Below are positions 2,458-21,685 of a stretch of 64,000 nucleotides of DNA, in pieces. The DNA is taken from assembly GCA_049521175.1 (NCBI GenBank), contig JBEKPB010000006.1, positions 41,296-105,295 of the forward strand, given 5' to 3'. The number at the start of each line of letters is the position of its first letter. Positions within the stretch are counted from its first letter, which is position 1. The notes beneath the pieces were generated by a model. That model was not told the origin of the DNA and searched no databases. It worked only from the letters and a program-made list of their open reading frames with translations. Position numbers and translations under genes: made by a program. The DNA is from Candidatus Limnocylindrales bacterium. Lineage in GTDB: Bacteria; Chloroflexota; Limnocylindria; Limnocylindrales; CSP1-4.

Positions 2458-3126
2458 CTATCGCTTGCGAGCGCGTCGGCGGCCCTTTGGCGCGCGAGCT
2501 CGAGCCCCGGTGCCGGCAACCGCCGGTCCGGTGCCGCGGAACTCGATCAGGTGCCGGCGCATGATGCCCTCGGTCCTGAGAACCGACATGGCCATCCCGC
2601 TGCCCAGCACCAGGTCGCCCCGGTTGATCCTGAGCATGATCCGGGCAACGGGGCCGAGGGCCTGCCGGTCGGCGAAGCCGCTGGGATCCTCGATCTGGAG
2701 CCTCAGCTCCCGTGGAGAATCCGGATACTTCCCGTCGCCGACGGTCGCAACCTCGTTCCATGATATCGGGCGCCGGCTGGGGAACGCCTCCCACCAGGAG
2801 GTCGGGCGGTTACCCGGGAACAGCTCGAACCCCTCCCTCGCGACCAGCAGGCGCACCGGGCTGGCCAGATGCTGCATGTCCATGAGGGAGCCCCTGATCC
2901 CGTATAGCACCAGCGTGAAGCCGCCGGCCGCATAGGCCAGACCGATGATCGTGTTTCCCGAGGACAGGTCGCCACTTCCCATGTAGGCGCCGAACAGTCC
3001 GAGCGGGACCATGCAGATCTCGAAGATCATCCTCAGCTTTGTCCTGCGGGTGTCGTCATAGATCGCGACCGCCGGCCCGAGGGCCGGGTGGCTGATCTTG
3101 GACTCGGCGGGCTGATCCGAAGCCAC
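2458..3126 (-). CDS. Hypothetical membrane protein (N-terminal TM pair plus PH-like/YdbS-like domain)
   Basis: 222-aa ORF immediately downstream of response regulator gene. Hydrophobic N-terminus. No recognisable catalytic motif. Confidence 0.4.
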   Translation of the reverse strand: MASDQPAESKISHPALGPAVAIYDDTRRTKLRMIFEICMVPLGLFGAYMGSGDLSSGNTIIGLAYAAGGFTLVLYGIRGSLMDMQHLASPVRLLVAREGFELFPGNRPTSWWEAFPSRRPISWNEVATVGDGKYPDSPRELRLQIEDPSGFADRQALGPVARIMLRINRGDLVLGSGMAMSVLRTEGIMRRHLIEFRGTGPAVAGTGARARAPKGRRRARKR

Positions 3127-3221
3127 GGGCTCTTCTCCTGACGATTGACGGGCGCCTCGCGCGCGCTGCCCATCATGACGGGTCAGGCCGGACCGGGTGC
3201 CGCGTTCGGCCGAGCCGAGAG

Positions 3222-3725
3222 CTACCCTCGGTCCGCCGAGATCGGGTCGGCGTCACGGGATGGGTCCTCGGGACCGCCGCCGCCGGCAGAACGAGCATTC
3301 GAGGTCGCGGTCTTGCGCGCCAGTGCCATGGCGACGCTGGACGCAAGCTGGTCGGCCGTGAACGGTTTTTGGAGCAGCAGCGCGCTGGCAGTGTGGGGCG
3401 CGGAAATCTCGGCGACGAGTTCGGGCGAGTACCCCGAAGTGAACAGAACGGCTGCCTCGGGGTGGCTGCGGTGCACTGCACCGGCGAGCACCGGGCCGCG
3501 CATGCGGGGCAGCATCACGTCGGTCAGAAGCAAGTCTATCGGCGTGGTGATTCGCGACGCCTGCGCGAGCGCGTCACGGCCGTCGCTCGAGACGATGACC
3601 TCGAAATTGAGGGCCTTCAACCACCTCGTGGTGATCCCGGCCACAGAAGGGTCGTCCTCGACGAGAAGTACCGTCAGAGGCCGCGTTGGCGTCGAAGACC
3701 GGACCTCATCCGGATCGGAACCCAT
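3222..3725 (-). CDS. Response regulator, receiver (REC) domain only, canonical Asp
   Basis: LTVLLVEDDP...IDLLLTDVMLPRMRG...LFTSGY...QKPF. Classic DD, D, T, K receiver residues. No output domain. Confidence 0.75.
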   Translation of the reverse strand: MGSDPDEVRSSTPTRPLTVLLVEDDPSVAGITTRWLKALNFEVIVSSDGRDALAQASRITTPIDLLLTDVMLPRMRGPVLAGAVHRSHPEAAVLFTSGYSPELVAEISAPHTASALLLQKPFTADQLASSVAMALARKTATSNARSAGGGGPEDPSRDADPISADRG

Positions 3726-3965
3726 GCCGAGTCCATACCTGCTTCACGCGCTCAGCATAGGCCTTCTCTGGGCCGGTTCAAACTCACCTATCGGCCGTGC
3801 AAGCTTCTTCGTTGCCAAGGCGGGTCGCACCCACCGGGCTCGCATGCGAGAATTACGCCCCGAGCGTCCAGCCGCTTGGCCGTCTCGAGATCCGAGCGGT
3901 TCGATCGCCCGCCCGTCCTAGATCAGCCCGCAGGAGGTTCACAGCCCCTGCCCGAGGAGACAAGA

Positions 3966-5378
3966 GTGACCGCCGCACAGCCGACACCGCCGGCCGACGA
4001 CCCGGGGCCTTCCGTCGCCAACCTCGAAACGATCGTCTCGCTGTCAAAGCGGCGCGGCTTCATCTTCCCGAGCTCGGAGATCTATGGCGGCATCAACGCC
4101 GTGTGGGATTACGGGCCACTCGGCGTCGAGCTCAAGAACAACGTCAAGCGAGCCTGGTGGCGGACCATGGTCCAGGAGCGCGACGACATCGTCGGCCTGG
4201 ACGCGGGCATCATCATGGCACCTCAGGTTTGGGTCACCTCCGGCCATGTCGCCAGCTTCACCGACCCACTCGTCGAGTGCCAGACTTGCCGGCGACGCTT
4301 CCGCCTCGACGAGCTGCCGGGCGCCGAGAACCTGACCAACACCGAGCTGGCCGACCCGACGGTCGTCGACCGCCTGGGCCTCAAGTGCCCGGTCGACGCC
4401 GGCCCGCTCTCCGCCCCGCGCCGCTTCAACCTGATGTTCAAGACCCACATGGGGCCGGTCGAGGAAGAGGGCAACGAGGTCTACCTGCGCCCGGAGACGG
4501 CCCAGGGCATCTACGTCAACTTCCGCAACGTCCGCGAGACGAGCCGTAAGAAGCTGCCGTTCGGCATTGCCCAGATCGGCAAGGCATTCCGCAACGAGAT
4601 CAGCCCCGGCAATTTCGTCTTCCGGATGCGCGAGTTCGAGCAGATGGAGATGCAGTACTTCGTCAAGCCCGAGACCGCGGCGGCTACGTTCGAGGCGTGG
4701 ATGCCAAAGCGCCTGGCCTGGTACGAGCGCTACGGCGTGACGCCCGAGCGGCTGCGCTTCCGCGAGCACCGCCCGGACGAGCTGGCCCACTACGCCAAGA
4801 AGGCCGTCGACATCGAGTACCGCTTCCCGTTCGGCTGGAAGGAGCTCGAAGGCATCCACAACCGCGGAGACTGGGACCTGGGCCGCCACCAGGAAGCCAC
4901 GGGCGAGAACCTCGAGTACTTCGATCCCGCCACCGAGGAGAAGTACGTGCCCTGGATCGTCGAGACCTCGGCCGGCGGCGATCGGGCGGCCTTCACGTTC
5001 CTGATCGACGCCTATCGTGAGGAAGAGGTCCGCGGCGAGAAGCGCGTCGTGCTGGGCTTCAACCCGGAGCTCGCCCCATACAAGGTGGCGGTCCTCCCGC
5101 TGCTCAAGAAGCGCGACGAGATCGTCGAGAAGTGCCACGCCATCCGCGACGATCTGGCCCGCGACATCATGGCGGTCTACGACGACACGGCCGCGATCGG
5201 CAAGCTGTACCGGCGCCAGGACGAGATCGGCACGCCGTGGTGCGTCACGGTCGACGTCGATTCACTGGAGGACGGCAAGGTCACGATCCGGGACCGCGAC
5301 TCGATGGAACAGATTCGGGTCGACATCTCGCAGGTGAAGCCGCTCATCCTCGAGCGGCTCGCGGAGGCAAGAGGTTAG
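3966..5378 (+). CDS. glyQS: Glycine--tRNA ligase (dimeric class II type)
   Basis: SLSKRRGFIFPSSEIYGG...WDYGPLGVELKNNVK motifs. GTG start at 3966 preceded by GGAGGA. About 470 aa. Confidence 0.9.
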   Translation: MTAAQPTPPADDPGPSVANLETIVSLSKRRGFIFPSSEIYGGINAVWDYGPLGVELKNNVKRAWWRTMVQERDDIVGLDAGIIMAPQVWVTSGHVASFTDPLVECQTCRRRFRLDELPGAENLTNTELADPTVVDRLGLKCPVDAGPLSAPRRFNLMFKTHMGPVEEEGNEVYLRPETAQGIYVNFRNVRETSRKKLPFGIAQIGKAFRNEISPGNFVFRMREFEQMEMQYFVKPETAAATFEAWMPKRLAWYERYGVTPERLRFREHRPDELAHYAKKAVDIEYRFPFGWKELEGIHNRGDWDLGRHQEATGENLEYFDPATEEKYVPWIVETSAGGDRAAFTFLIDAYREEEVRGEKRVVLGFNPELAPYKVAVLPLLKKRDEIVEKCHAIRDDLARDIMAVYDDTAAIGKLYRRQDEIGTPWCVTVDVDSLEDGKVTIRDRDSMEQIRVDISQVKPLILERLAEARG

Positions 5379-5463: not shown

Positions 5464-6333
5464 TCAGCCAACCCAACTCCGGACTTGCACTTTGCCCGCG
5501 ACCACCCTGACTTCGTAGCGGGCCTGGGGGAACGGGGCCGGGCCGCGTCCTACCGATCCGTCCGCCGTCCGGAAGCGCGAACCGTGCCACGGGCACGTCA
5601 CCTCGTCACCTCGAAGCGTCCCCTCGTGCAGCGGGCCCCCGGCATGGGAGCAGACCTCGCCGATCCCAGTAACGAGCTCGGCATGGCGAACCAGGAGGAC
5701 AGGCCGGCCATCCGCCTCGGCGTAGTTGAGTCCTTCGTTCAAATCGGACACGGGCCCGATCGTCACGAAGTCGTCGAGCGGCTCGCGGAAGGCATTGTGG
5801 TCGACCATCGATCCGAAGGCGAACGTCATCTCGCCGCCGAGAAATCCCCCGACCATCATCAGCCCGAAGCCGATGAACCCGAGGGCTCGACCGGCGAGCG
5901 AGTCTACCGGCCCCGAGAGCCGCACGATGCCGCTCGCGAGGAACAGGATCGTGACGCAAGCCATCACGAGGGCGTGCAGGATTCCGACGCGCTGCTCGAG
6001 CCCGTATGTGTCCTTGAAGTCGGTCAAGCCGGAGAGGACGGAGACGGCGGCGGCGGCCACACCCAGCCACAGCGCTACGGCCGCCGCCCCACTCAACCCT
6101 GCGCTCGGAACCGCGATCCCGATGGCGTCGAACGCCGCAACGACCGTCCAGGCACCGATCGCGACGCCGGTGATCATCGGATGGATCGGGTGTCCGAGCC
6201 ACGTCCCGGTGAGAAGGGACTGGAGCGGCCTGGCCCGGCGATAGAACGCGTCCGTCACGTCGGCGACCCAGCGTCCCAATCGATCGAGGCCCGGCACATG
6301 GCGGACGACTCGTACCACGACTCGTGATGCCAT
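5464..6333 (-). CDS. Rieske [2Fe-2S] domain protein with N-terminal DUF2231-like membrane domain
   Basis: C-terminal CSHAGGPL...CPWHGSRF Rieske boxes. N-terminal half has four or more hydrophobic helices. Confidence 0.65.
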   Translation of the reverse strand: MASRVVVRVVRHVPGLDRLGRWVADVTDAFYRRARPLQSLLTGTWLGHPIHPMITGVAIGAWTVVAAFDAIGIAVPSAGLSGAAAVALWLGVAAAAVSVLSGLTDFKDTYGLEQRVGILHALVMACVTILFLASGIVRLSGPVDSLAGRALGFIGFGLMMVGGFLGGEMTFAFGSMVDHNAFREPLDDFVTIGPVSDLNEGLNYAEADGRPVLLVRHAELVTGIGEVCSHAGGPLHEGTLRGDEVTCPWHGSRFRTADGSVGRGPAPFPQARYEVRVVAGKVQVRSWVG

Positions 6334-6513: not shown

Positions 6514-8001
6514 TCAGTGGGCCGCAGGAGCCTCCAACGGAACCTCGACCGGAGACGGAAGGTCGCCGCGCAGGTACGCGTCGATGTTGCGGGCAGCCTT
6601 CTTGCCGTCGCCCATGGCCAGGATGACCGTGGCCGCGCCGCGGACGATGTCGCCGCCGGCGAAGACGCCGTCCATCGAGGTCTCGAGGTTGCCGTCGATC
6701 TCGATGTAGCCCCACTTGTTGATGCGGAGGTCGGGCGAGGTGGAGGTCAGGAGCGGGTTGGACCTGGTCCCGATCGCGACCACGACCATCTCGCACGGGA
6801 AGACGAACTCGGAGCCGGGGATCTCGACCGGCCGCCGGCGCCCCGAGGCGTCGGGCTCGCCGAGCTCCATGCGGATGCACTTGAGGCCGGTGACCCAGCC
6901 CTTCTCGTCGCCGAGCACTTCGACCGGCGCGGTCAGGAACTCGAAGCGGACGCCTTCCTGCTCGGCGTGGTGGACTTCCTCGCTGCGAGCCGGCAGCTCG
7001 GTTCGGGAGCGGCGATAGACGCACACCGCCTCGGCGGCGCCCAGCCGGCGCGCGGTCCGGACCGAGTCCATGGCCACGTTGCCGCCGCCCACGACCGCCA
7101 CCCGCTGGCCGTGCAGGACCGGCGTGTTCGAGTCGGGGTTGTAGGCGCCCATCAAGTTGACGCGCGTCAGGTACTCGTTCGCGGAGTAGACACCCTTCAG
7201 GTTCTCGCCGGGCACGTTCATGAAGACCGGCAGGCCTGCGCCGACCGCCACGAAGACGGCGTCGAATTCGGCGCGCAGCTCGGGCAGGGTGTAGGTCTTG
7301 CCGATGATCGAGTTCGGGCGGATCTCGACGCCGTCGGCGACCAGACGATCGACTTCCTTCTGGACGATGTCCTTGGGCAGTCGGAACTCCGGGATGCCGT
7401 AGATCAGCACGCCACCCGCAGCGTGAAAGGCCTCGAAGATCGTGACCTTGTGGCCGTGCTTGGTGAGCTCTCCGGCGGCGGTCAGGCCGGCTGGGCCGGA
7501 ACCTATGATCGCGACCTTCTTGCCGGATGGTGCCGGCTTGGCGGCGGTGAAGACATCGCGGTTGTTGATCGCCCAGTCGGCCACGAAACGCTCGAGATAG
7601 CCGATCGCCACTGGCGTGCCGGTCTTGGCGCGCAGGCAGACCTGCTCGCACTGGGTTTCTTGCGGGCAGACGCGCCCGGTGACGCACGGCAGGGCGTTGT
7701 CGCCGAGCAGTGAATCGGCGGCCCCCTTGACGTCGCCCTCGCCGAGGAGGCGGATGAAGTTGGGAATGTTGACGGAAACCGGGCAGCCGTCGATGCAGTA
7801 CGGCTTGGGGCACTGCAGGCAGCGGTCGGCCTCCATGATGGCCAGCTGCTCGGTGTAGCCGAGGTTGACCTCGGCGAAGTTGCGGGCCCGAGCCATGGCG
7901 TCCTGCTCGGGCATGGACCCGCGCTGGATCTTCATCCGCTCCTTCTTGGGAAGCGGCTCGGCATGCGCGGCAGCGCGGGCGGATAGGGTCAGGTCGTCCA
8001 T
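6514..8001 (-). CDS. nfnB: GltD/SudA/NfnB-like NAD(P)H-dependent oxidoreductase, large subunit (2x[4Fe-4S] + FAD/NAD(P) Rossmann folds)
   Basis: 496 aa from ATG at complement 7999-8001 (MDDLTLSARA). CLQCPKPYCIDGCPV, VAIIGSGPAGLTAAGEL, VAVVGGGNVAMD motifs. The 636-aa six-frame ORF is an upstream over-extension. Confidence 0.85.
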   Translation of the reverse strand: MDDLTLSARAAAHAEPLPKKERMKIQRGSMPEQDAMARARNFAEVNLGYTEQLAIMEADRCLQCPKPYCIDGCPVSVNIPNFIRLLGEGDVKGAADSLLGDNALPCVTGRVCPQETQCEQVCLRAKTGTPVAIGYLERFVADWAINNRDVFTAAKPAPSGKKVAIIGSGPAGLTAAGELTKHGHKVTIFEAFHAAGGVLIYGIPEFRLPKDIVQKEVDRLVADGVEIRPNSIIGKTYTLPELRAEFDAVFVAVGAGLPVFMNVPGENLKGVYSANEYLTRVNLMGAYNPDSNTPVLHGQRVAVVGGGNVAMDSVRTARRLGAAEAVCVYRRSRTELPARSEEVHHAEQEGVRFEFLTAPVEVLGDEKGWVTGLKCIRMELGEPDASGRRRPVEIPGSEFVFPCEMVVVAIGTRSNPLLTSTSPDLRINKWGYIEIDGNLETSMDGVFAGGDIVRGAATVILAMGDGKKAARNIDAYLRGDLPSPVEVPLEAPAAH

Positions 8002-8834
8002 CAGTGGGCCTCCGCGTGCGAGGCCTGCCAGCGCTCGAGGGCGGCCTGTTCGAATTCCCGGTAGGTAGTGAGCCGGTCGGCCAGCAGCCGGAAGTCGACC
8101 TTGTGGCCGTCGAACTCCGGGCCGTCCACGCAGGCGTACTGACTCTTGCCGTCGATGGCGACACGGCAGCCGCCGCACATGCCCGTCCCGTCGATCATGA
8201 TCGAGTTCAGCGAGACCGTCGTCTTGATGCCGTACGGCCGGGTCAGCTCGGAGCAGGCCCGCATCATCGGCACCGGACCGACGGCGAAGACCTCGTCGAT
8301 ACCGCCGGCTTCGCACAGGTCCTTGAGGGCCTCGGTCACGAAACCGTGGCGGCCGTAGCTGCCGTCGTCGGTGCAGACGATCACGTCGCCTGCGGCCCGC
8401 AGCTCGTCCTCGTAGATGACCCACTCCTTCGAGCGGCCACCGATGACGCTCGTCACCTTCACGCCGTTCCTGGCGAGGGCCTGGGCGATGGGGTAGACAA
8501 CCGCGGTGCCGACTCCGCCACCGACGCAGACCGCATGCCCGGCTTCCAGCAGCTCCGTGGGCCGGCCAAGCGGCCCGGCCACGTCCGTTATCGCGTCGCC
8601 GACCTGGAGCGTGGTCAGCTCGCTCGTGCTCGCTCCGATGGCCTGGATCACCAGGCTGATCGTCCCGGCCGACTTGTCGACGTCGGCGATGGTCAGAGGG
8701 ATGCGTTCCGCTCCGGGCCCGCGACGCACGATCACGAACTGCCCCGGCTGCCGGATCTCGGCAATGCGGGGCGCCTCGACGACGAGGCGGGTGACGTTCG
8801 GGGAAAGCTGGGACCTGGCGACTATGGGGTGCAT
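8001..8834 (-). CDS. nfnA: SudB/NfnA/PyrK-like FAD + [2Fe-2S] electron-transfer subunit
   Basis: 277 aa. C-terminal GTGMCGGC...C cluster motif. Stop overlaps nfnB start (ATGA). Confidence 0.8.
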   Translation of the reverse strand: MHPIVARSQLSPNVTRLVVEAPRIAEIRQPGQFVIVRRGPGAERIPLTIADVDKSAGTISLVIQAIGASTSELTTLQVGDAITDVAGPLGRPTELLEAGHAVCVGGGVGTAVVYPIAQALARNGVKVTSVIGGRSKEWVIYEDELRAAGDVIVCTDDGSYGRHGFVTEALKDLCEAGGIDEVFAVGPVPMMRACSELTRPYGIKTTVSLNSIMIDGTGMCGGCRVAIDGKSQYACVDGPEFDGHKVDFRLLADRLTTYREFEQAALERWQASHAEAH

Positions 8835-9074
8835 CTCACTCCGGTGGCATGGGGCGGCAAATATCGCTTGCTAAGGCAGTATGAATTACGGCAATGGTGG
8901 CCGTTGAAGGCCCTCGCCGGCACGCCCGGTGTGTACCTGTCGGCCGGGCCGAAGGTCACAACGTGAAACCCTCGGAACGGGTGGGCTCCCGGGTCGAGCG
9001 GCGGCTACCAGCCTAGCAGCGAACGGGTCATCGCGTGGATCTGGTTCAGTGGGACGGGCCCGAGCGACCCAGGC

Positions 9075-9470
9075 CTAGGGTTTGACCGCCGCCGGGTCGG
9101 CTCCGTGCCACTCCTCGTGGCCCGGCCGCGCGCCATCGAGACCCGCTTCCGCCCGAAGGTGAACGCGCCGGGCGTCGACGGACATCGACAGGCTCTTCTT
9201 GTTGCAGACCTCGACGCATACGCCGCACGCGATGCACGTCAGCTGCTCGATGGCCCAGTAGCGGTCGTCGCGGGAGGCGGTGATGGCGACCGCGGGGCAG
9301 CGCCGCGCGCAGAGCATGCAGAAGTTGCAGGACTCCACGTCGAACTCGATCGTGCCGCGCGCCCCAGCGAAGCGCGGCCGGACCTCGGTCGGGTAGAGGC
9401 GGGTTGCCGGTCGTGAGACCAGGTTGCGGAGCGACCGCCGGACCATGGGCAGGGTGAGGGGATTGGCCAT
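9075..9470 (-). CDS. echF: Ech hydrogenase subunit F (2x[4Fe-4S] ferredoxin, NuoI-like)
   Basis: CNFCMLCARRCP and CIACGVCVEVCN motifs. Last gene of the operon. Confidence 0.8.
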   Translation of the reverse strand: MANPLTLPMVRRSLRNLVSRPATRLYPTEVRPRFAGARGTIEFDVESCNFCMLCARRCPAVAITASRDDRYWAIEQLTCIACGVCVEVCNKKSLSMSVDARRVHLRAEAGLDGARPGHEEWHGADPAAVKP

Positions 9471-9471
9471 C

Positions 9472-10557
9472 TCAGCGCTCCGTGCAGCTGATGCATGGAT
9501 CGATGGTCAGGATGATGTTCGGCACGTCGGCGAGGTCGCAGCCCTTGACCAGCTTGATCATCGCCGGGATGTTGGCGAAGGTCGGGGTGCGAGCCCGGAA
9601 CCGCTCGAGGTTCTTTGTGCCATTGGCCTTGACGTAGTAGAGGACTTCGCCGCGGGGCTGCTCGAGGCGGGTGAACGTCTCGCCAGCGGGCAATCCGCGC
9701 GGGCGGTTCTCGATCGGCTGGCCCTCGCCCTTTGGCATCTTGTCGATCGCCTGGCGGACGATGTCGATCGACTGGTCGATCTCGCGCATCCGGACGAGGA
9801 CCCGAGCGAGGCAGTCGCCGGCGGTCTCGACTACCGGCTCCAGCTCGACTCGATCGTAGAAGTTCGCGCCCAGGAGTCGCGTGTCGGTGGCGATGCCCGA
9901 GGCGCGGGCCATCGGGCCGACAGCATCGACCGCACGCGCGTCCTCGGTCGTCAGCACTCCGACGCCGCCGAGCCGGTGGGCGATCGAGGGATCTGTCCTG
10001 AAGACCCGGGCCGTGTCTTTGAATGCGGCGCCCAGCTCCTGCAGCTGGACGAGGATGGCCGCGAGTTCGGAGTCGGCGATGTCGCGCTTGACTCCGCCGA
10101 TGCGGTTGACCGAGTGGATGATCCGGCCGCCGGTCGTCTTCTCGAAGATGTCGAGGATCTGCTCGCGCATCCGCCAGCAATGCATGAAGAGGTTCTCGAA
10201 CCCGAACGCATCGGCGCCCAAGCCGAGCCAAAGCAGGTGGCTCTGGATCCTCGAGATCTCGGCCCAGATCAGGCGCAGCCAGCCGGCTCGCTCTGGGACC
10301 TCGACGTTCATGATGCTTTCGAGCGAGACGCAGTAACCCATGCCGTGCATGAAGCTGCAGATGCCGCAGATGCGCTCGACCACGAAGCCCATCTCGGTGT
10401 ACTCCACCCGCTCGACCATCATCTCGAGGCCGCGGTGGATGTAGCCGATGGTCGGGATGGCGTCCACGACCTTCTCGTCCATCAGCACGAGGTCGAGCAC
10501 CAGCGGCTCCGGCAGGACCGGATGCTGCGGCCCGAATGGGATGACAGTCTTCTTCAT
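9472..10557 (-). CDS. echE: [NiFe]-hydrogenase large subunit, group 4 (Ech/Coo type, NuoD-like)
   Basis: MKKTVIPFGPQHP start. L1 motif RICGICSFMHGMGY. L2 motif DPCISCTER at the extreme C-terminus with no cleavable extension. 361 aa. Confidence 0.9.
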   Translation of the reverse strand: MKKTVIPFGPQHPVLPEPLVLDLVLMDEKVVDAIPTIGYIHRGLEMMVERVEYTEMGFVVERICGICSFMHGMGYCVSLESIMNVEVPERAGWLRLIWAEISRIQSHLLWLGLGADAFGFENLFMHCWRMREQILDIFEKTTGGRIIHSVNRIGGVKRDIADSELAAILVQLQELGAAFKDTARVFRTDPSIAHRLGGVGVLTTEDARAVDAVGPMARASGIATDTRLLGANFYDRVELEPVVETAGDCLARVLVRMREIDQSIDIVRQAIDKMPKGEGQPIENRPRGLPAGETFTRLEQPRGEVLYYVKANGTKNLERFRARTPTFANIPAMIKLVKGCDLADVPNIILTIDPCISCTER

Positions 10558-11069
10558 GGCTTCTTCACCGCCGCCGCGTTTGCCTTGAGCCGGGCCTTGA
10601 TCGCGGCATGCGAGAAGGGGACCCGGGTCGCGGTCTTGTACAGCTGGCCGTGCAGGTCCAAGCCGATGCCGGTTACGTTGATGCCGAACAGCTCCCGGAT
10701 CTCGTTCTCGTAGAGGAACGCGGCCCCGAAGAGCTCGGATACGCTCGGCACCGCCTCGCCGGCCTCGATCTGCTCGCGAATCGTCTCGAACTCGTTGCCC
10801 CTGGCGAAGGCCCAGGCGATTTCGAAGACGCCGGGCGCCTCGACCGCCGGCGGAGCCACTGGGGCCGATGGCGCGGGCGGGGTCGCCGGCGCGGGTACTT
10901 CGCCGGCCGAGGTTGGCGCGCCAGCCCCCGTGGTCGCGGCTTCGGCCGTCGTCACGTGGCCGTGCGTCCCTGCCGCAGGCGCCACGACCGTCGTGGCGTT
11001 GATGAGGGCCAGACGCCAGCCGGCCTCGTGGTATGCCCCGACTCGGGCGAGGAAAGCGCTGCCGTCCAT
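10555..11069 (-). CDS. echD: Ech hydrogenase subunit D (NuoC-like) with Ala/Pro/Thr-rich insert
   Basis: ENEIRELFGINVTGIGLDLHG NuoC signature. Internal ATG MDGSAFLARV chosen as start. ATGA overlaps with echC and echE. Confidence 0.7.
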
Positions 11070-11494
11070 CAGGCCGTCTTCTTTCGTTTCTCTTCGAGCG
11101 CGGCGATGCCCTCCACGACGCCGTCGATGATGCTTTCGGGGCGCGCCGCGCAGCCGGGCACGTAGACGTCCACCGGCAGCACCTTGTCGATCCCGCCCTG
11201 GATGTTGTAGGCGCGGGCGAAGATGCCTCCGGAGCACGCACACGCCCCGACCGCAACCACGACCTTGGGCTCGGGCATCTGGCGGTACAGGTTCTTCACG
11301 ATCTCGACGTTGCGTTCGTTCACGCTGCCGGTCACGAGCAGGATGTCGGCGTGCTTCGGGTTCCCCGTGTTGATCACTCCGAACCGCTCCACGTCGTAGA
11401 GCGGCGTCAGGCAGGCCAGGACTTCGATGTCGCAGCCGTTGCAGCTCGATCCGTCGTAGTGGAGGATCCATGGTGAGCGGCGGAAGAAGGACAT
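11069..11494 (-). CDS. echC: [NiFe]-hydrogenase small subunit, group 4 (NuoB-like)
   Basis: MSFFRRSPWILHYDGSSCNGCDIE...GACACSGG...VPGCAARPE. Proximal cluster cysteines. 141 aa. Confidence 0.85.
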   Translation of the reverse strand: MSFFRRSPWILHYDGSSCNGCDIEVLACLTPLYDVERFGVINTGNPKHADILLVTGSVNERNVEIVKNLYRQMPEPKVVVAVGACACSGGIFARAYNIQGGIDKVLPVDVYVPGCAARPESIIDGVVEGIAALEEKRKKTA

Positions 11495-11499
11495 CTCGA

Positions 11500-12354
11500 T
11501 CACCGGCCCAGCAGGAATAGAGCGAGCACGTTGCCGCCCGAGAAGACCAGGGTGGCAACCCAGGTGGAGCGCAGGACGAGCTGCCACTTGATGCGCGACG
11601 TGGAGTTGTCGAGCAGGATCTCCAGGGCGTAGGCGACGAGGAAGGCGACCAGACCCAGGGCCACGCTCCAGTTGAAGAGCAGGACCATGAAGGCGCACAG
11701 CAGCGCCGACTCGTACCAGCGTGCCAGCTCGACGTAGGCCAGCAGCCGGCCCGACATGTCGGACTTGAGACCGCTCACGAGCTCCTGGTGGGGGTGGTGC
11801 GACATCGAGATGTCGAATGGCGACTTCCGAAGCTTGATCGTCGCGACCATCAGGAACGCCAGCAGAACGCCCGGCAGCTGTGCGGCCACGAGCTGGCTCG
11901 ACGCAAGGACGCCCTCGAAAGTGTTCGCGCCGGTCACCTTGCAGATGGCGGCCATCATCAGGATGAAGAACGGTTCGGCCGCGAGCAGCACGACGAGCTC
12001 GCGTTCGGCACCGGTGAAGCTATACGGGGAGTTGGCCGACCCGGCGGCGAGGACCAGCAGCAGCGCCGCCAGGGCGAAGACGAACGTCGTGAAGATCAGG
12101 TCTGTGCCGCTCAAGAGCAGCGCGCCGGTGGCGGCCATGAAGATGAGGTGGCCCACCAGGATCGGCTCCATGATCGGGTTGAGCTGCCGCGACTGCTTCT
12201 GCAGCAGCTTGCCGACGTCGTAGAACGGCTGCAGCAGCGGCGGCCCGACACGGCCCTGCATCCGCGCGCTGATCCTGCGGTCCACGCCGGCCACGAGCCC
12301 ACCGAAGATCGGGGCGAGGCCGAGGAAGAGCAGCCCGTAGATCGCCGGGTTCAT
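11500..12354 (-). CDS. echB: Ech hydrogenase membrane subunit B (NuoH/HycD-like)
   Basis: 284-aa polytopic protein from ATG MNPAIYGLLFLGLAPI. ATGA overlap with echA stop. Confidence 0.8.
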   Translation of the reverse strand: MNPAIYGLLFLGLAPIFGGLVAGVDRRISARMQGRVGPPLLQPFYDVGKLLQKQSRQLNPIMEPILVGHLIFMAATGALLLSGTDLIFTTFVFALAALLLVLAAGSANSPYSFTGAERELVVLLAAEPFFILMMAAICKVTGANTFEGVLASSQLVAAQLPGVLLAFLMVATIKLRKSPFDISMSHHPHQELVSGLKSDMSGRLLAYVELARWYESALLCAFMVLLFNWSVALGLVAFLVAYALEILLDNSTSRIKWQLVLRSTWVATLVFSGGNVLALFLLGR

Positions 12355-14288
12355 GGTCGGGCCACCATCCCAACCGTGACCATAGCCACCAGGATTCCGC
12401 CACAGGCGACTGTCCCGGCACGGAACATCAGGGCGCCGTTGATAACCCCGTCGAGGTAGTAGTTGCGGAGGGTCACCTTCTTGATGCCGCCCAGCGCCGC
12501 ACCCATGACGTGGCCTGGGGTGGTGCTGCGACCGCCGGCGTAGAAGTCCGCGTGGTCGTATACGGGATGGCGCCACACCCAGAGGGACAAGAGCGGCAGG
12601 AAGAGCATCGCGGCCATGAGCACGGCCAGCGTCGCTGGGTCCAGGGCGAGGAAAGTGCGGGGTGCGGCGGAGAAGGCGCTGAGTGCGTACGGACCGACGA
12701 CGTGGTCCGAGATGAGGCCGACGCACGCCGCAGCGGCGATCACGCCGATCGCCATCGGGATCTCGGTCGCCCACTCGTAACGCGAGACCCGGCTCTCGAT
12801 CGAGCGTTCGTAGGCGGTCACCTTCCGCGCGGACAGCACCTTCATGAGGAGCTTGCCCCAGTAGAAGATCGTCAGCGAGCTGCCGAACGCCATGATCACG
12901 ACCATCGCGGCGCCGGCGGCGCCGGGCACGAGCAGGAACGCCCGGATGGCGGTCCATTTGGCGATGACGAGCCCGAACGGAGCCACGAACATCCCGGCGA
13001 TGCCGGTCAAGAACAGCGTGCTGATGCGCGGCATAAGGCTCATCAGCGCGTCGAAGTTTTCCATGTTCTTCGTGTAGAGCCGGTTCTCGATGGTCCCAAC
13101 GACCAGGAAGAGCAGGCCCTTGGCCAGGGCGTGGAAGATGATGATCATCACCCCGGCCCACGCCAGCTCCGGCGTCCCGATGCCTGCACAACCGACGATC
13201 AACCCCAGGCTGCCGATCGTTGAATAGGCGAGGACCTTCTTGGTGTTCTGCTCCGTCACGGCTACGAGCGAAACGAAGAGGAACGTCAGCAGCCCGACGA
13301 AAGCCACGAGATAGCCCACCGTCGAACCCGACATAGCCGGGGACAGGCGCAGTAGCAGGAAGACGCCGGCCTTGACCATCGTGCTGGAGTGGAGCAGCGC
13401 CGAGGTTGGGGAAGGGGCGTACATGGCGCCGATCAGCCACGAGCTGAATGGCATCTGCGCGCTCTTGGTGATGCCGGCGAAGGCGAGGAGTGCGATGGCC
13501 GGTAGAAGTGCCGCTCCGGCCGGACCGTGGGTGAGCCTGGCCAGGTCGAGGCCGTCCGCCTGACCCGACAGCCACACGATGGCCAGCCCGAACCCCAGCC
13601 CGCCCAGGAGGTTCATGTTGAGCGCCCTGAAGGCATACCGGACCGTCTCTTCGGTCCGCGTGTAGCCGATCAGCAGGAACGAGCAGATGGTCGTGATCTC
13701 CCAGAAGACCAGCATCATCGGCAGGTAGTTCGACACGACCAGCCCGAACATGCCCGCCAGGAAGACGAACAGCAGTGAGAAGAAGACCGTGCGGCGGCCC
13801 TGGATCATCGGGCTGGCACGGTGGTAGGCCCGCATGTACCCGATCGCGTTGATGCAGATCAGCGGGCCGATGATCCCGACCACGAGCACCATCACCAGCG
13901 AGAGGCGGTCGAACCAGAAGAGCCGCGAGGGGTCCGGCTCGGGCAGGCGGCCGGCCACTTCGAGCCAGACGGAGATGCCCAGCTGGGTGAGGGCCAGGAT
14001 CGGCGCCGGGAACCGGCGATGCATCAGGCTGATCACCACCACGAAGGCGGTGAGCGCGATCTCGACGGCCAGCAGCGCCTGCCCCGGTTCGAGTCCGCCC
14101 GGGAGACCGAAGAAGGCGCCGTCGCCGTTACCGAATGCGACCGCGGCCGCGACCGAGATGGCGGCGACGAGCAATCCGCCAACCACCACGACCGCGTTTC
14201 GGAGCGCGGACGAGGAGATCAGGATCAGGATCGCGCCGACGATCGCGGGCAGCGCGATGAGGGCGGCGACGAGAGAGGGAAGACTCAC
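12351..14288 (-). CDS. echA: Ech hydrogenase membrane subunit A (NuoL/HyfB/Mrp antiporter-like)
   Basis: About 645 aa. Hydrophobic throughout. Proposed GTG start (VSLPSLVAALIALPAIVGA) overlaps the stop of the upstream receiver gene (GTGA). Confidence 0.75.
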   Translation of the reverse strand: MSLPSLVAALIALPAIVGAILILISSSALRNAVVVVGGLLVAAISVAAAVAFGNGDGAFFGLPGGLEPGQALLAVEIALTAFVVVISLMHRRFPAPILALTQLGISVWLEVAGRLPEPDPSRLFWFDRLSLVMVLVVGIIGPLICINAIGYMRAYHRASPMIQGRRTVFFSLLFVFLAGMFGLVVSNYLPMMLVFWEITTICSFLLIGYTRTEETVRYAFRALNMNLLGGLGFGLAIVWLSGQADGLDLARLTHGPAGAALLPAIALLAFAGITKSAQMPFSSWLIGAMYAPSPTSALLHSSTMVKAGVFLLLRLSPAMSGSTVGYLVAFVGLLTFLFVSLVAVTEQNTKKVLAYSTIGSLGLIVGCAGIGTPELAWAGVMIIIFHALAKGLLFLVVGTIENRLYTKNMENFDALMSLMPRISTLFLTGIAGMFVAPFGLVIAKWTAIRAFLLVPGAAGAAMVVIMAFGSSLTIFYWGKLLMKVLSARKVTAYERSIESRVSRYEWATEIPMAIGVIAAAACVGLISDHVVGPYALSAFSAAPRTFLALDPATLAVLMAAMLFLPLLSLWVWRHPVYDHADFYAGGRSTTPGHVMGAALGGIKKVTLRNYYLDGVINGALMFRAGTVACGGILVAMVTVGMVARP

Positions 14289-14671
14289 TCCGCCTCGGGC
14301 AGGAGGTGGTCGATCTCGTCGACCAGGACGTCGCCGATGACCGGCTTTTCCAGATAGCGGCTGACGGGGATCCAGCCGTCGCGGTCCTGGCTGTCCAGCT
14401 GTTCGTCGGAGAGCAGTTCGTCGGCCCGAGTCAGCATGATGAGCGGCAGGTCCGGATGCTCTTGAGCCAACGATTGAGCGAGTTCGATGCCGGACAACTT
14501 GCCGCCGAGCACGGCCTCCAGGACGACGAGATCGGGCATCTCCTCGCGCATGTAGAGGGCCGCTTCGGCAGGGGTCGAGGAACTGGAGACCGAATGACCG
14601 CCGGCCTCGATCGCTTCCGTGGTTCTGGCGACCGAGATCGGGTCGTCGTCGACGATGTGTATGTGAGCCAT
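14285..14671 (-). CDS. Receiver-only response regulator with Glu at the phospho-acceptor position; translationally coupled to echA
   Basis: MAHIHIVDDDP...PDLVVLEAVLGG...LIMLTRAD...LEKPV. DD, T and K are conserved but the LVVLE residue that should be Asp is Glu. The upstream part of the 223-aa six-frame ORF is Arg-rich junk. Confidence 0.7.
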   Translation of the reverse strand: MAHIHIVDDDPISVARTTEAIEAGGHSVSSSSTPAEAALYMREEMPDLVVLEAVLGGKLSGIELAQSLAQEHPDLPLIMLTRADELLSDEQLDSQDRDGWIPVSRYLEKPVIGDVLVDEIDHLLPEAE

Positions 14672-14896
14672 GTGTCCAACTTTTCGGTTGTTTCCGGGCC
14701 ACCTGGGATGGAGAGCGGCTCGGATCTTTGGGACGCTCCTCGCGCGTCTCTCTTCAGCCTCGTCAGCGTATCCAGAGACGAGGCGCCTTGAGCCCCGCGG
14801 TTCGGCCCTTCTGGCCGGGAAATTCGGCCCCCAAGTTCGGGACCGACTTACTTTCCTCGGTAATTTGGGCGCCGCGCCTGACAGAAATGGGCTAGG

Positions 14897-15253
14897 ATGC
14901 GCCGCGTGCATGAGTTTTCGATAGCGGAAGCGATCCTGACCCAGGTCCAGCGCCATGCGCCGGACGATGCCCTGGTGCGCGACGTGTCGATCCGCGTCGG
15001 GGTCCTGCGCGGTCTCGAACCGGAGGCATTGCAGATGTCATGGACCGCGGTGATCGCGGGCACGGCCATAGACGGGGCCACTCTGACGGTGGATCAGCGG
15101 CCGTGGACCATCACGTGCTCCACGTGCGGCCGGAGCTGGACCAGCGCGGTTCCATTCGTAGACTGCGCCTGCGGCAACACGACGCCGGCGCCCACGGGCG
15201 GCGACGAGCTGGATCTAGTCTCGATCACGGTCGACCAGGAGGAAACCAGTTGA
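14897..15253 (+). CDS. hypA: Hydrogenase nickel-incorporation protein HypA
   Basis: Mature-looking N-terminus (M)HEFSIAEAIL (His2). CSTC...DCAC zinc site. True start probably GTG at 14906. Confidence 0.7.
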   Translation: MRRVHEFSIAEAILTQVQRHAPDDALVRDVSIRVGVLRGLEPEALQMSWTAVIAGTAIDGATLTVDQRPWTITCSTCGRSWTSAVPFVDCACGNTTPAPTGGDELDLVSITVDQEETS

Positions 15254-15921
15254 GCGGTCAGACGCGGACCGTCCGCCTTCCGGTGGTGGAGCGCATCCTC
15301 GAGGCCAACGACGGGATCGCCTCTTCCATCAGGGCGGAGCTGGCGCGCCGGGGCATCTTCGCGATCGACCTGATCGGGGCTCCGGGGAGCGGCAAGACGG
15401 CGCTGCTGGAAGCCACTCTGCGTTCGCTCAAGGGTCGCCGGAAGCCTGCCGTGCTCGTGGGCGACCTCACGACCAGGCGCGACGGCGACCGGCTGGCCCG
15501 CTGGTGCGACCGGGTCGTCCAGATCTCGACCGGTGAAGGCTGCCACCTCGAGGCCGTCCAGGTTCGGGACGCGTTGGGCGGGATCGATCTCGAGGGAGTG
15601 GATCTCCTCTTCGTCGAGAACGTGGGCAACCTGATCTGCCCGGTCGGTTTCGACCTGGGTCAGAGTGTCAAAGTTGGTCTGTTCAGCCTGACCGAGGGCG
15701 ACGACAAGGCCGCCAAGCACCCCTACCTGGTTACGGCCGCGGACCTGATCCTGCTCAATAAGATCGACCTGGCTCCACATCTGACCTTCGACCGGTCCCT
15801 CTTCGAGGCGGACGTCCGATTGCTCAATCCCGACGTGCCGATCCTGGGCATCTCCTCGACCACCGGCGAAGGGCTCGACGCCTGGCTCGCCTGGCTCGAC
15901 CGTCGGGCGGCAGGAGACTGA
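15250..15921 (+). CDS. hypB: Hydrogenase maturation GTPase HypB (no N-terminal His/Cys metal-binding stretch)
   Basis: GAPGSGKT P-loop, ENVGNLICP, LNKIDL. TTG start 15250 with AGGAGGA upstream. Overlaps hypA stop. Confidence 0.8.
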   Translation: MSGQTRTVRLPVVERILEANDGIASSIRAELARRGIFAIDLIGAPGSGKTALLEATLRSLKGRRKPAVLVGDLTTRRDGDRLARWCDRVVQISTGEGCHLEAVQVRDALGGIDLEGVDLLFVENVGNLICPVGFDLGQSVKVGLFSLTEGDDKAAKHPYLVTAADLILLNKIDLAPHLTFDRSLFEADVRLLNPDVPILGISSTTGEGLDAWLAWLDRRAAGD

Positions 15922-19204: not shown

Positions 19205-20011
19205 TCAACGGATCGGCCACAGGATTTCGGTGCGGAGTGCGCCGGCGTCCCCGACCTGCTCCGGGCCGACCAGATAGACCTCGCGGGGCGGTCCTGCCGT
19301 CTCGTGGCCGTGCTCCTGGACCCATTCGCCCAACGCGCGGTAGGCCGGAGCTATCTCCTCGTACCGGCCGGCGTGGACCGTCGTCGCAACCAGGCCGCCG
19401 GGGATCGTGGTGGCGATCACGCGCCCCGTGGGCCCGATCGGCTCGGCGACCGGCATGCCGACCTCGAGGTCCACCTCGGCTTCAGCGGATTCGGCGCTGT
19501 GGTAGATGCCGTAGGCGGGGCCGGCGAACCTGACGCACTGCTGGCCCGCAACCCCAAAGACCTCCAGGAGCGCTGCGGAGATGAACGATCCAAGGTCGGA
19601 CCAGGGCGCCCGGCCTCGGATTGACGCAGCAGGCTGTGGCTCCGTCTCCCGGAGATGGATCTCGTATGTCATCGGTGGCTCCTCGCGCAACATCGAATCG
19701 AGCAAGGAGATGGCGTAGCGCCGCCGATCGGCCTCTGCCTGGAGTCTCTCCCGATGGGCCTCAAGCAGAGCCTTCGTCCCGGCGGTGTCGCTGGCGAGGA
19801 TCGCTCGGATCTCCGGTAGCGGCATGTCGAGGAATCGCAGGGTCCTGATCCGGTCCGCGTCCTCCGCCTGAGCCATCGAGTAGTAGCGATAGCCCGTGTC
19901 GGGATCGACAGCGGCAGGAGGCAGCAGGCCCAGCTCGTCGTAATGACGGAGCGCCGGGATCGAGAGCCGGCAGATCTCGGAGAACCGACCGATCGGTAGC
20001 AGGTTCCGCAT
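19205..20011 (-). CDS. MerR-family transcriptional regulator with C-terminal GyrI-like effector domain
   Basis: N-terminal IGRFSEICRLSIPALRHYDELGLL HTH. Coiled-coil region. C-terminal about 150-aa GyrI-like fold. Confidence 0.8.
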   Translation of the reverse strand: MRNLLPIGRFSEICRLSIPALRHYDELGLLPPAAVDPDTGYRYYSMAQAEDADRIRTLRFLDMPLPEIRAILASDTAGTKALLEAHRERLQAEADRRRYAISLLDSMLREEPPMTYEIHLRETEPQPAASIRGRAPWSDLGSFISAALLEVFGVAGQQCVRFAGPAYGIYHSAESAEAEVDLEVGMPVAEPIGPTGRVIATTIPGGLVATTVHAGRYEEIAPAYRALGEWVQEHGHETAGPPREVYLVGPEQVGDAGALRTEILWPIR

Positions 20012-20117
20012 CGCGTTCCTCCGTCAGCCTGGATCGAACCGGATCCAGGCTCGTTTGGCGCGACCAGCCTGGATCCTCAGGCAACCGGAGAGTCAAGCCC
20101 GACGACCGGTATCCGAT

Positions 20118-21685
20118 CTTAGAGCCTGAGAACCAATCGTATTGGGCAAAGGCGGGCGATTGGATCAGGCTTTCGCGAAGTTGATCGGGGAGCGGGACCA
20201 TCGAGATGTTGTCCAGACACGGCCCGCGGCGCAGTGGAGCGACGGGGGTGGCGATGGTGACGTTCCGCCCCGGGTGCCTCGCGTCAGGCGGCGCTGGCCG
20301 CTGAGCGCAATGCCGCTGTCCGCATGAGGTTGTGAGCCAGGGCGAACCAGAGGAGCACGGCTCTGGCCTTCGCCCTGCCTCGGACGCCGAAGCGCTGCAG
20401 GCCTCGATTGCGGGCGATGGCGTTGACGCACTCGGCGGTGGCGGCCCGGTCTTTGTAGATCTCCTTCGCTTGCGGCGTGCCCATCCGAGTGCGCCAGTCG
20501 GCAACGGCGGGCGAGTCCGATGGAAGCGGCAGATACGGGTCGCGACCCCGGACCTCAGGGGTGCGGACTGGCAGGTAGAGGGTCGTGCCGGCTTCGGGGG
20601 CAGCGAACTCCTCGATCTCGGCGCTGGCCAGAAAGCCGGCGTCGGCGAGCCAGGCGCCTGGTGCGCGGCCGTATCTCGTGCGTAGCTGGCGAACCATCGG
20701 GCCAAGCTGGCCTGATCGGTGCCAGCGTTGGTCAGGTCCAGTCCGACGATGACCTGGCTGCCCGTATCGGTCACGAGCTGGGCGTTGTATGCGGGTCTCC
20801 AGCCGCCGTCGGCCATCTTCATGACGCGGGCCTCCGGATCGGTTGTGGAGGCCCGGGCATCCTCTGGGGGCTTGCCGCGCTTGGCGTTGCGCTTCTTGGC
20901 GGCTTCGAGTGCCGGCAGATGGGCGAGAGCATGTCGAACCCTCTCGGCCCGCTCTCGTGTGGCCCGCTCTCTCGCTGCGGCGACCCGCCGACTGCTTGCA
21001 CCCGGGTCGTCATCGAGTTCGTTCTTGAGGGCGCGGACCTGGGCATCGGCTTGTGCGAGGAAGCGCTCGAGTCTGTCTCGGCGGCGGTATGAAGCCGCAC
21101 CTGCGGCTGCTCGGACCCGGACGCCGTCCTGGGCGACCGCGACCATGGTCACCAGGCCATCGGCCAGGAGCGCCGCGACGCTCTCTGTGAGGAGCCGATC
21201 GAGGACATCGGCGTGCTCGACCCGGAACGCCGCGAGGGTGTGATAGTTGAGCCCGACCCCGCCGGCAAGCCAGCGGTATCCATCGTGCTCCTCACACAGC
21301 CGGTCGAGCGCCCTGGCGCTGCCGACGCCTTCGAGCGTCGCGTACAGCCACAGCGCCACGAGGATTGCAGGATCGATCGGTGGCCGTCCCGGATGGCCCT
21401 CGATTGCCTTGATGCGCGTATACAGCGGCGTGAGATCGAGCCCCTCCACGAAGGCCCACACGAGGCGAGCCCGATGGTCGGGGCCGAGGAGGCCGTCGAG
21501 ATCGACCGAACGCAGCTCGAGCTGGCCCCGGTTCGGTAGCTGGAGGCGCGGTACGCCTGCCGCCTCCTGGTGCTCGTCTGGCTCGGCGAGTGGGAGTGCG
21601 AAGAGAGTGTCGTCCATGCCGAGAATCGTAGCTGCGAGGAGGTCGGCTGGGAATCCCTGAAACCAATAGATTCACAGGCTCTTAG
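20118..21685. mobile_element. IS1182/IS5-family insertion sequence (about 1.57 kb) with imperfect terminal inverted repeats
   Basis: Left end cttagagcctgagaaccaatcgtattgg at 20118-20145. Right end ccaatagattcacaggctcttag at 21663-21685. The ends match 16/19 positions as an inverted repeat. Encodes one transposase. Confidence 0.65.
20284..21617 (-). pseudogene. IS1182/IS5-family DDE transposase, split by a frameshift near 20.69 kb
   Basis: N-terminal frame LAEPDEHQ...RLQLPNRGQLEL...TDPEARVMKMADGGWRPAYNAQ. C-terminal motifs LADAGFLASAEI...KEIYKDRAATAECVNAIARNRGLQRFGVRGRAKA are in another frame (20284-20697). The six-frame ORF 19761-21617 reads through into merR antisense. Confidence 0.65.

Follow-up and report, generated by a model that had tools for sequence, protein, structure and literature searches.

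The window analyzed here, a 64-kb stretch of contig JBEKPB010000006.1 from Candidatus Limnocylindrales bacterium, carries a predicted Ech-type [NiFe]-hydrogenase operon whose first gene, directly ahead of echA, encodes a protein of 128 residues that consists of a receiver (REC) domain only and has a glutamate in place of the phospho-acceptor aspartate. The interpretation that we favor, holding the chances for and against it to be about equal, is that this protein would be a kinase-independent Glu-type pseudo-receiver, which would derive from a receiver of hydrogenase-linked signaling, would have become fixed as the first ech gene in Limnocylindria-type Chloroflexota and in Elusimicrobiaceae, and would act by protein contact. 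Sequence and gene context make it probable that the protein serves the hydrogenase and needs no kinase to do so.

The gene product (128 residues; MAHIHIVDDDPISV...DHLLPEAE), translated from 14671 to 14285 on the minus strand, is 100% identical to NCBI entry MGA3030161.1, annotated as “response regulator [Candidatus Limnocylindrales bacterium],” and also to P0278. It matches the Pfam receiver family PF00072 over residues 4–86 (E = 4.5e-13; 49.8 bits versus a cutoff of 30.2), and a PDB sequence search returned receiver domains exclusively. An AlphaFold2 model built from 26 family members (predicted local distance difference test score 87; predicted template modeling score 0.83) displays the (βα)5 fold with its five strands and helices, and the best Foldseek matches to the model are FrzS, Spo0F, DivK, and other receivers, with template modeling scores of ~0.8. 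By both family match and fold, the protein is a REC domain. No NCBIfam model is passed by the protein, which shows weak similarity to CpdR in that database. There is no second domain, and the protein is strongly acidic (net charge −20, isoelectric point 4.2). A flavodoxin- or ferredoxin-mimic role, considered on account of the shared fold class and the acidity, was dropped: the receiver signature is intact, a cofactor-binding motif is not evident, and relatives that retain the acceptor aspartate are equally acidic.

Glu52 lies opposite the phospho-acceptor aspartate in every PDB alignment, as in that with Bacillus subtilis PhoP (Asp53; PDLIVLDVML versus PDLVVLEAVL). A MAFFT alignment including Escherichia coli CheY pairs Asp8 with Asp12, Asp9 with Asp13, Glu52 with Asp57, Thr81 with Thr87, Tyr106 with Tyr106, Lys109 with Lys109, and Pro110 with Pro110 of CheY. 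The Pfam hidden Markov model leaves the C-terminal third of the protein unaligned, so Thr81, Tyr106, and Lys109 are assigned from the CheY alignment and from the AlphaFold2 model, in which Glu52 is at the end of β3, β4 comprises residues 77–81, and β5 comprises residues 105–108; α4 is broken and short and is followed by a low-confidence loop (88–104). The gene and its signature codons are located as follows.

14285–14671, minus strand: REC-only pseudo-receiver gene, 128 residues (PF00072, PDB alignments, AlphaFold2, Foldseek).
14645–14650, minus strand: codons of Asp8 and Asp9, the acidic metal-binding pair (CheY Asp12/Asp13; Asp8 in 118 and Asp9 in 116 of 121 family sequences).
14516–14518, minus strand: GAG codon of Glu52, at the phospho-acceptor position (CheY Asp57) by the PDB and CheY alignments (121 of 121).
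14429–14431, minus strand: codon of Thr81 (CheY Thr87; Thr in 117 and Ser in 4 of 121).
14345–14356, minus strand: codons of Tyr106-Leu-Glu-Lys109, with the aromatic switch residue and the conserved lysine (CheY Tyr106 and Lys109; Tyr in 109 and Phe in 12 of 121, Lys in 121 of 121).

An earlier, sequence-only reading of this DNA had described a REC-only protein of 128 residues with Glu at the acceptor position and with the acidic pocket, the β4 threonine, and the β5 lysine intact. The PDB and CheY alignments bear this description out: Glu52, and not an aspartate, falls at the acceptor position, and Asp8/Asp9, Thr81, and Lys109 take the expected places in the CheY alignment. Compared with a canonical phospho-accepting regulator, the protein therefore lacks the acceptor aspartate, which is Glu52, and retains the Asp-Asp pair, the threonine, the aromatic residue, and the Lys-Pro pair; it is an aspartate-less receiver, or pseudo-receiver, of the Glu subclass as defined in the literature (PMC4395418, PMC12632262).

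Glu-type pseudo-receivers are an already well-known class, glutamate being the most frequent acceptor substitution in aspartate-less receivers (26%; PMC4395418). Known members, including Chlamydia ChxR, the plant pseudo-response regulators, and fungal Rim15p, share with the window protein the REC fold, the Asp-to-Glu substitution, and retention of the first acidic residue and the lysine, and their activity is likewise presumed to be phosphorylation-independent (PMC12632262). In contrast to these examples, the window REC stands alone, without a DNA-binding or kinase domain, keeps all other pocket and switch residues (in the Chloroflexota branch), and is wired into an energy-converting hydrogenase operon. 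The single-domain regulators CheY, Spo0F, DivK, and CpdR, two of which are among the best structural matches together with FrzS, resemble it in length (~120–130 residues) and in having no output domain; however, their aspartate is phosphorylated by a kinase where the window REC has glutamate, and they lack its insertion of 6–7 residues (QDRDGW-P) between the shortened α4 and β5. How bacterial pseudo-receivers switch and act is largely unknown according to a 2025 review (PMC12632262). The word “hydrogenase” does not occur in either of the two papers on this class (PMC4395418, PMC12632262), a literature search returned nothing relevant linking Ech, echABCDEF, or group 4e to a response regulator or CheY, and a published overview of Chloroflexi-supergroup hydrogenases records group-4 enzymes bound to the membrane and does not mention a receiver gene. 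We thus found no earlier report of a Glu-type pseudo-receiver linked to Ech.

The glutamate is a fixed property of the family. A search of 5.8 billion proteins yielded 180 relatives, the best 120 of which are 54–98% identical to the window protein and nearly all 128 residues long, and Glu52 is present in 121 of 121 family sequences, which argues that the Asp-to-Glu change did not persist by chance. Further invariant positions include Lys109, Pro110, Trp100, Pro102, Val103, Arg105, Asp84, and Asp96, among others; 31 columns, some of them family-specific, are invariant among 26 sequences at 52–98% identity. The most conserved surface is formed by the active-site loops and the α4-β5-α5 region, the usual output face of receivers. 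Between the window and locus L173, whose REC proteins are 92% identical, the ratio of nonsynonymous to synonymous substitution rates (dN/dS) is 0.10 for REC (dS 0.58) and 0.115 for echA, indicating purifying selection on REC as strong as that on echA. A profile search of 1.84 billion cluster representatives gave only 8 at E < 1e-30; further Glu-type representatives (P0128, P0130, P0132, P0135, P0144, and P0177) group with the Chloroflexota-type clade. The exact protein recurs in ~97 blocks of a public-assembly index and on many public metagenome contigs, and relatives in species-representative genomes are labeled as Chloroflexi, Chloroflexia, or Anaerolineaceae metagenome-assembled genomes; Ellin6529, RIF-CHLX, and “Eulabeiota” are other names of the lineage.

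The REC gene is tightly joined to the operon that follows it, and both are read from the minus strand, with the nickel-insertion genes divergent from them.

14285–14288, minus strand: GTGA, in which the echA GTG start (14288–14286) overlaps the REC TGA stop (14287–14285) (sequence, EchA N terminus, public gene calls).
12351–14288, minus strand: echA, 645 residues, NuoL/antiporter-like membrane subunit (PF00361, PF00662, NCBIfam).
11500–12354, minus strand: echB, 284 residues, NuoH-like (PF00146).
11069–11494, minus strand: echC, 141 residues, NuoB-like small subunit (PF01058).
10554–11069, minus strand: echD, 171 residues, NuoC-like, with an Ala/Pro-rich insert (PF00329, alignment).
9472–10557, minus strand: echE, 361 residues, [NiFe] large subunit, NuoD-like (PF00346, PF00374).
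9075–9470, minus strand: echF, 131 residues, NuoI-like, with two [4Fe-4S] clusters (Fer4 families).
14897–15921, plus strand: divergent hypA (14897–15253) and hypB (~15286–15921), nickel-insertion genes (PF01155, PF02492).

The overlap of the REC stop with a GTG start of echA had been proposed from the sequence, and it stands with corrected exact coordinates. Read from this GTG, the EchA N terminus (VSLPSLVAALIALP...) aligns from residue 1 with EchA of all related loci and reproduces their conserved pattern, V/M-S-x-L-V/I-A-x-L-I/V-A-F/L-P; on public contigs, genes called independently include the same EchA of 645 residues, starting 4 nt ahead of the REC stop. For both reasons we take the GTG to be the correct start, as proposed, and the REC gene is predicted to be co-transcribed with echA as the first gene of the operon. 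EchE contains both nickel-binding motifs, RICGICSFMHG (RxCGxCxxxH) and the C-terminal DPCISCTER (DPCxxCxxR), and its homologs are labeled “ech hydrogenase subunit E” by JGI; Pfam gene order and these motifs together assign the operon to the Ech-type (group 4e) [NiFe]-hydrogenases. EchD (10554–11069) carries a low-complexity insert of ~50 residues rich in Ala, Pro, and Thr, and EchF (9075–9470) ends in a short Pro/Ala tail; similar features occur in relatives, without specificity for REC-linked operons.

The sequence-only reading had staked its proposal on finding the same gene at orthologous ech loci, and it recurs there in 10 distinct Chloroflexota (Limnocylindria-type) lineages (the window, L173, L001, L003, L004, L006, L008, L087, L088, and L089; REC identity 52–92%) and at two Elusimicrobiaceae loci. 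Every Chloroflexota-type locus with sufficient flank, except L090 and L091, has the divergent hypB-hypA pair, then REC, then echABCDEF, and the REC/echA junction in these loci measures −8, −4, +1, +3, or +4 nt. In the Elusimicrobiaceae loci (L010 and L086), REC lies directly upstream of echABCDEF with a gap of 39–44 nt and its own Shine-Dalgarno sequence; a tblastn screen of these loci gave no match to hypA/hypB. The Elusimicrobiaceae protein is ~35% identical to that of the window and retains the acceptor glutamate (5 of 5 members of its clade) and the conserved threonine and lysine; its acidic pair has degenerated to Asp-Lys (I-D-K-D), with loss of the second acidic residue. No kinase gene adjoins REC in any of the 14 Glu-type loci, the nearest kinases being ~8 kb away in L086 and L088. 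Within the 64-kb window, the part of the genome covered by the kinase search, a Pfam scan of ~50 open reading frames found no HisKA or HATPase_c domain and tblastn with three kinase cores found no match, in agreement with the earlier statement that the window holds no histidine kinase. The absence of an adjacent kinase and the Asp-Lys pair in Elusimicrobiaceae both lend indirect support to a function that would be independent of phosphorylation.

For comparison, five Ech loci from other phyla were picked via EchE rather than REC. Two of them (L168 and L169) have the classic echABCDEF-hypA-hypB order; they resemble the window in their six subunits, the order of these, EchE (~61% identical), and the nearby hypA/hypB, but echA comes first and there is no receiver gene. 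The ech operons of Methanosarcina barkeri, Thermoanaerobacter, and Desulfovibrio also begin at echA and are not known to contain a receiver gene. The remaining three loci have, respectively, a canonical Asp-type REC-only gene of a different subfamily 100 nt upstream of echA (L170, Omnitrophota, 3475–3858), a divergent gene for a REC-Ser/Thr kinase (L171, Lentisphaerae, 2838–4172), and a sigma-54 response regulator gene just downstream of ech (L172, Opitutaceae, 10380–11879). With one in three of the five sampled loci, receiver-domain genes near ech are not rare as such; it is for the Glu-type linkage that no earlier report was found. What is special at the Glu-type loci is the combination of the fixed glutamate, the lack of an adjacent kinase, and the tight coupling to echA.

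The closest relatives in which the acceptor aspartate is kept (Asp-type; 35–47% identical) are single-domain receivers in hydrogenase neighborhoods, and are also acidic. Glu-type and Asp-type proteins have in common the motif W-L-P-V-x-x-F/Y-x-E/D-K-P-V and the N-terminal MA-x-IL-x-VDDD, which are found in L009, L011, L012, L092, L093, L095, and many cluster representatives. On sequence features (~125–135 residues, acidity, the motif, and the insertion ahead of β5), the window REC can be placed in an informal subfamily of hydrogenase-neighborhood single-domain receivers. A kinase gene is immediately adjacent to the Asp-type REC gene in L012, L092, L095, and L141, and the contig end of L009 cuts a HydS-like gene adjoining REC. 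The order in L092 is kinase-REC-kinase, as in L012; in L095, REC follows genes for the NiFe small and large subunits, a maturation protease-like open reading frame, and a kinase; in L141 its neighbors are a group-4 hydrogenase cluster on one side and, on the other, a kinase with a group-1 hydrogenase; and in L034, L117, and L024 [FeFe]-hydrogenase-like genes are nearby. The genes at 7068–7919 of L009 and 7970–9967 of L012, beside the Asp-type REC, encode fusions of Fer4, [FeFe]-hydrogenase large-subunit-like, FeS, HisKA, and HATPase_c domains, i.e. HydS-like sensor kinases; that of L012 comes after a NuoF-like/HydA-type [FeFe]-hydrogenase pair and before a REC-kinase hybrid. The receivers found with HydS-like or NiFe hydrogenase and kinase sets (L009, L012, L095, and L141) thus share the motif, the acidity, and the hydrogenase setting with the window REC, but differ from it in their acceptor aspartate and adjoining kinase and in never being the first gene of an ech operon.

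In neighbor-joining bootstrap analysis, 86% of replicates recover the Chloroflexota-type Glu clade as monophyletic, and 100% recover the Elusimicrobiaceae Glu clade; the Chloroflexota-type clade sits within the hydrogenase-neighborhood receiver group. All Glu-type sequences together are monophyletic in 72 of 200 replicates (36%). The best tree joins the Elusimicrobiaceae clade to the Asp-type L009 and P0201, a grouping with L009 alone being found in 5 of 200 replicates. On these trees, Asp-to-Glu may have arisen either once or twice independently.

In the mechanism that we propose, the ancestral receiver would have relayed a hydrogen or redox signal via phosphorylation. Glu52, kept in place by Thr81 and Lys109 and linked to Tyr106, would lock the domain in one conformation, probably active-like, and a receiver fixed in this way would no longer report a kinase, but only the expression of the ech operon. 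Contact would be made through the highly conserved active-site and α4-β5-α5 face, and would be directed at the Ech system, with the complex (its activity, its assembly, or the docking of a partner) as the likeliest target and a regulator of Ech as the other. REC cannot act alone as a transcription factor since it has no output domain, a point on which the sequence-only reading was right. The uptake-hydrogenase regulators HoxA and HupR, which are active when unphosphorylated, offer a likeness in receiver control without phosphorylation as the activating step; they are NtrC-type DNA-binding activators with an acceptor aspartate and a cognate kinase (HoxJ/HupT), and the window REC has neither. 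Thr81, Tyr106, and Lys109, through which receivers sense the phosphoryl group and switch conformation, are retained, and this fits a role of Glu52 as a mimic of phospho-Asp, which glutamate can be through its contacts with the threonine and lysine, although this is not general (PMC4395418, PMC12632262). We regard as tentative, and lean against, a bolder version in which the receiver fold would be a seventh, regulatory subunit of Ech; the family would then directly control hydrogenase systems, membrane-bound or sensory, at the protein level, with Asp-type members set by hydrogen-sensing kinases and Glu-type members frozen, bound to Ech, and gating ferredoxin:proton oxidoreduction or assembly.

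Several points weigh against the kinase-independent Ech partner. Gene order and short overlaps are no proof of a complex, such overlaps being frequent wherever genes adjoin in GC-rich operons. Binding of REC to Ech is what we infer, and the evidence behind the earlier description of REC as a stoichiometric partner of Ech is operon position. A comparison of EchD and EchF between REC-linked and REC-less operons revealed no docking feature; the only differences were low-complexity inserts and tails rich in Ala and Pro. Between the two REC-linked phyla, EchE identity is ~60%, the value also found against REC-less EchE, and because this identity is no higher, a transfer of REC and ech as one unit is not indicated. 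The Chloroflexota loci were sampled via the REC gene, so that their count does not give the frequency of related ech operons without REC. Two orphan Glu-type copies, 56–59% identical (L090 and L091), have no ech genes in their available flanks; the neighbors in L090 are an isochorismatase gene and a PIN/RHH toxin-antitoxin pair. Asp-to-Glu makes some receivers constitutive but not others, and is often insufficient by itself (PMC4395418, PMC12632262), so that of the earlier claim that the substitution “usually” gives a phosphorylation-independent, active-like receiver, the capacity for mimicry stands and the generality does not. In L091, an ApbE (flavin transferase) gene comes directly after the orphan receiver gene (9001–10241). 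ApbE is a maturation factor of Rnf/Nqr-type membrane redox complexes, which weakly hints that other ferredoxin-linked complexes may be served by the pseudo-receiver as well.

Around the operon, a pyruvate-phosphate dikinase gene also lies upstream and divergent, together with hypA and hypB, and NfnA-like (NF004862, 385 bits) and NfnB-like (TIGR01316, 589 bits) genes follow directly 3′ of echF (6514–8834, minus strand). The Ech-Nfn synteny, also found in L003, L004, and L089, suggests a redox module of ferredoxin, NAD(P)H, and H2. A DUF2231 membrane domain fused to a Rieske [2Fe-2S] domain is encoded shortly downstream of the Nfn-like pair (5464–6333, minus strand). The divergent intergenic region between hypA and REC contains a conserved repeat.

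14802–14829, minus strand: direct repeat GGCCGAA-N14-GGCCGA, hypA/REC divergent intergenic region (sole match in the window versus 0.15 expected; aligns in nine loci).

This repeat may serve the divergent promoters of hyp and rec-ech as an operator or promoter element. An Rfam scan of the window returned tRNA only, with no known RNA element in the REC leader, and a sigma-70 promoter and terminator scan of 14200–15000 found nothing. A gene for a MerR-HTH/GyrI-like regulator (19205–20011, minus strand) is kept in synteny near hyp/ech, L001 having one copy and L003 two, and its product might regulate the hyp/ech locus. Between this gene and a DUF72 gene lies a transposase-like open reading frame (DUF772, IS5-type; 19761–21671, minus strand), which is probably disrupted; no transposase is called at this position in the syntenic locus L001. 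The second receiver protein of the window, used earlier as the canonical counterpart of REC, indeed has the acceptor aspartate (LLLTD); its gene runs from 3743 to 3222 on the minus strand, and the protein has an N-terminal extension of ~25 and a C-terminal one of 35 residues. The open reading frame downstream of it (2461–3252) has no Pfam match.

Some of the same observations can be accommodated by other functions. The pseudo-receiver could be a signal connector that binds not Ech but a kinase, receiver, or transcription factor elsewhere, e.g. the MerR/GyrI-like protein, such that ech expression feeds back on hyp, nfn, ech, or another pathway. The Asp-type relatives belong to multi-step signaling sets (HydS-kinase, REC, REC-kinase in L012 and L092) and not to enzyme complexes, Glu-type copies exist without ech, the conserved hypA/REC repeat suggests that a DNA-binding regulator acts there, and the window, L001, and L003 share the MerR/GyrI-like gene in synteny. 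We nevertheless consider this rather unlikely: no partner was found, and the place of REC at the head of the operon, −8 to +4 nt from echA, is kept over 52–98% identity and recreated in a second phylum, which fits a product required along with Ech at least equally well. A role as a maturation or assembly helper, in which the acidic pocket (Asp8, Asp9, and Glu52) would bind metal and aid HypA/HypB-dependent nickel insertion or assembly of Ech in the membrane, appears improbable. It would be consistent with the invariably divergent, adjacent hypA-hypB of the Chloroflexota-type loci, with the three retained carboxylates, and with the acidity of the protein (−20, isoelectric point 4.2). However, the second acidic residue is gone from the Elusimicrobiaceae copies (Asp-Lys), whose loci gave no tblastn match to hypA/hypB, REC-less Ech operons with hypAB (L168 and L169) mature without such a protein, and Thr81, Tyr106, and Lys109 are switch residues rather than metal ligands.

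Continued control by a kinase, or by another enzyme encoded elsewhere in the genome that modifies Glu52 or another residue (acyl phosphate, methylation, or Ser/Thr phosphorylation as in plant pseudo-response regulators), is in our view quite improbable, even with all pocket residues retained and with an inspection that spanned 64 kb of the genome. Modification of the glutamate has been raised as a possibility in a review of aspartate-less receivers, but a signaling glutamyl phosphate is without known example in bacterial receivers (PMC4395418); moreover, an adjoining kinase is found at none of the 14 Glu-type loci, as opposed to its presence beside Asp-type relatives, and the Elusimicrobiaceae copies lack a metal ligand needed in phosphotransfer. 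That REC is a functionless remnant of a lost two-component system, left upstream of ech by accident, would explain the absence of both kinase and output domain, but is highly improbable: the selection data (dN/dS ~0.10) already contradict it, as do the 31 invariant positions, some family-specific, the position kept in two phyla, and the occurrence of the exact protein in ~97 blocks of the public-assembly index.

This family, with Ech as its obvious candidate target, offers a natural case for how bacterial pseudo-receivers act, in a class that makes up several percent of all receiver domains. The Asp-type relatives remain tied to hydrogen-sensor kinases, so one and the same family allows the step from phosphorylated to fixed receiver to be followed by comparison. 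The labels that annotation pipelines give the window protein, “response regulator” and “CheY-like chemotaxis protein,” are misleading. The findings suggest that Ech of Limnocylindria-type Chloroflexota has an accessory or regulatory component that has gone unrecognized, and that receiver proteins may act on hydrogenases post-translationally.

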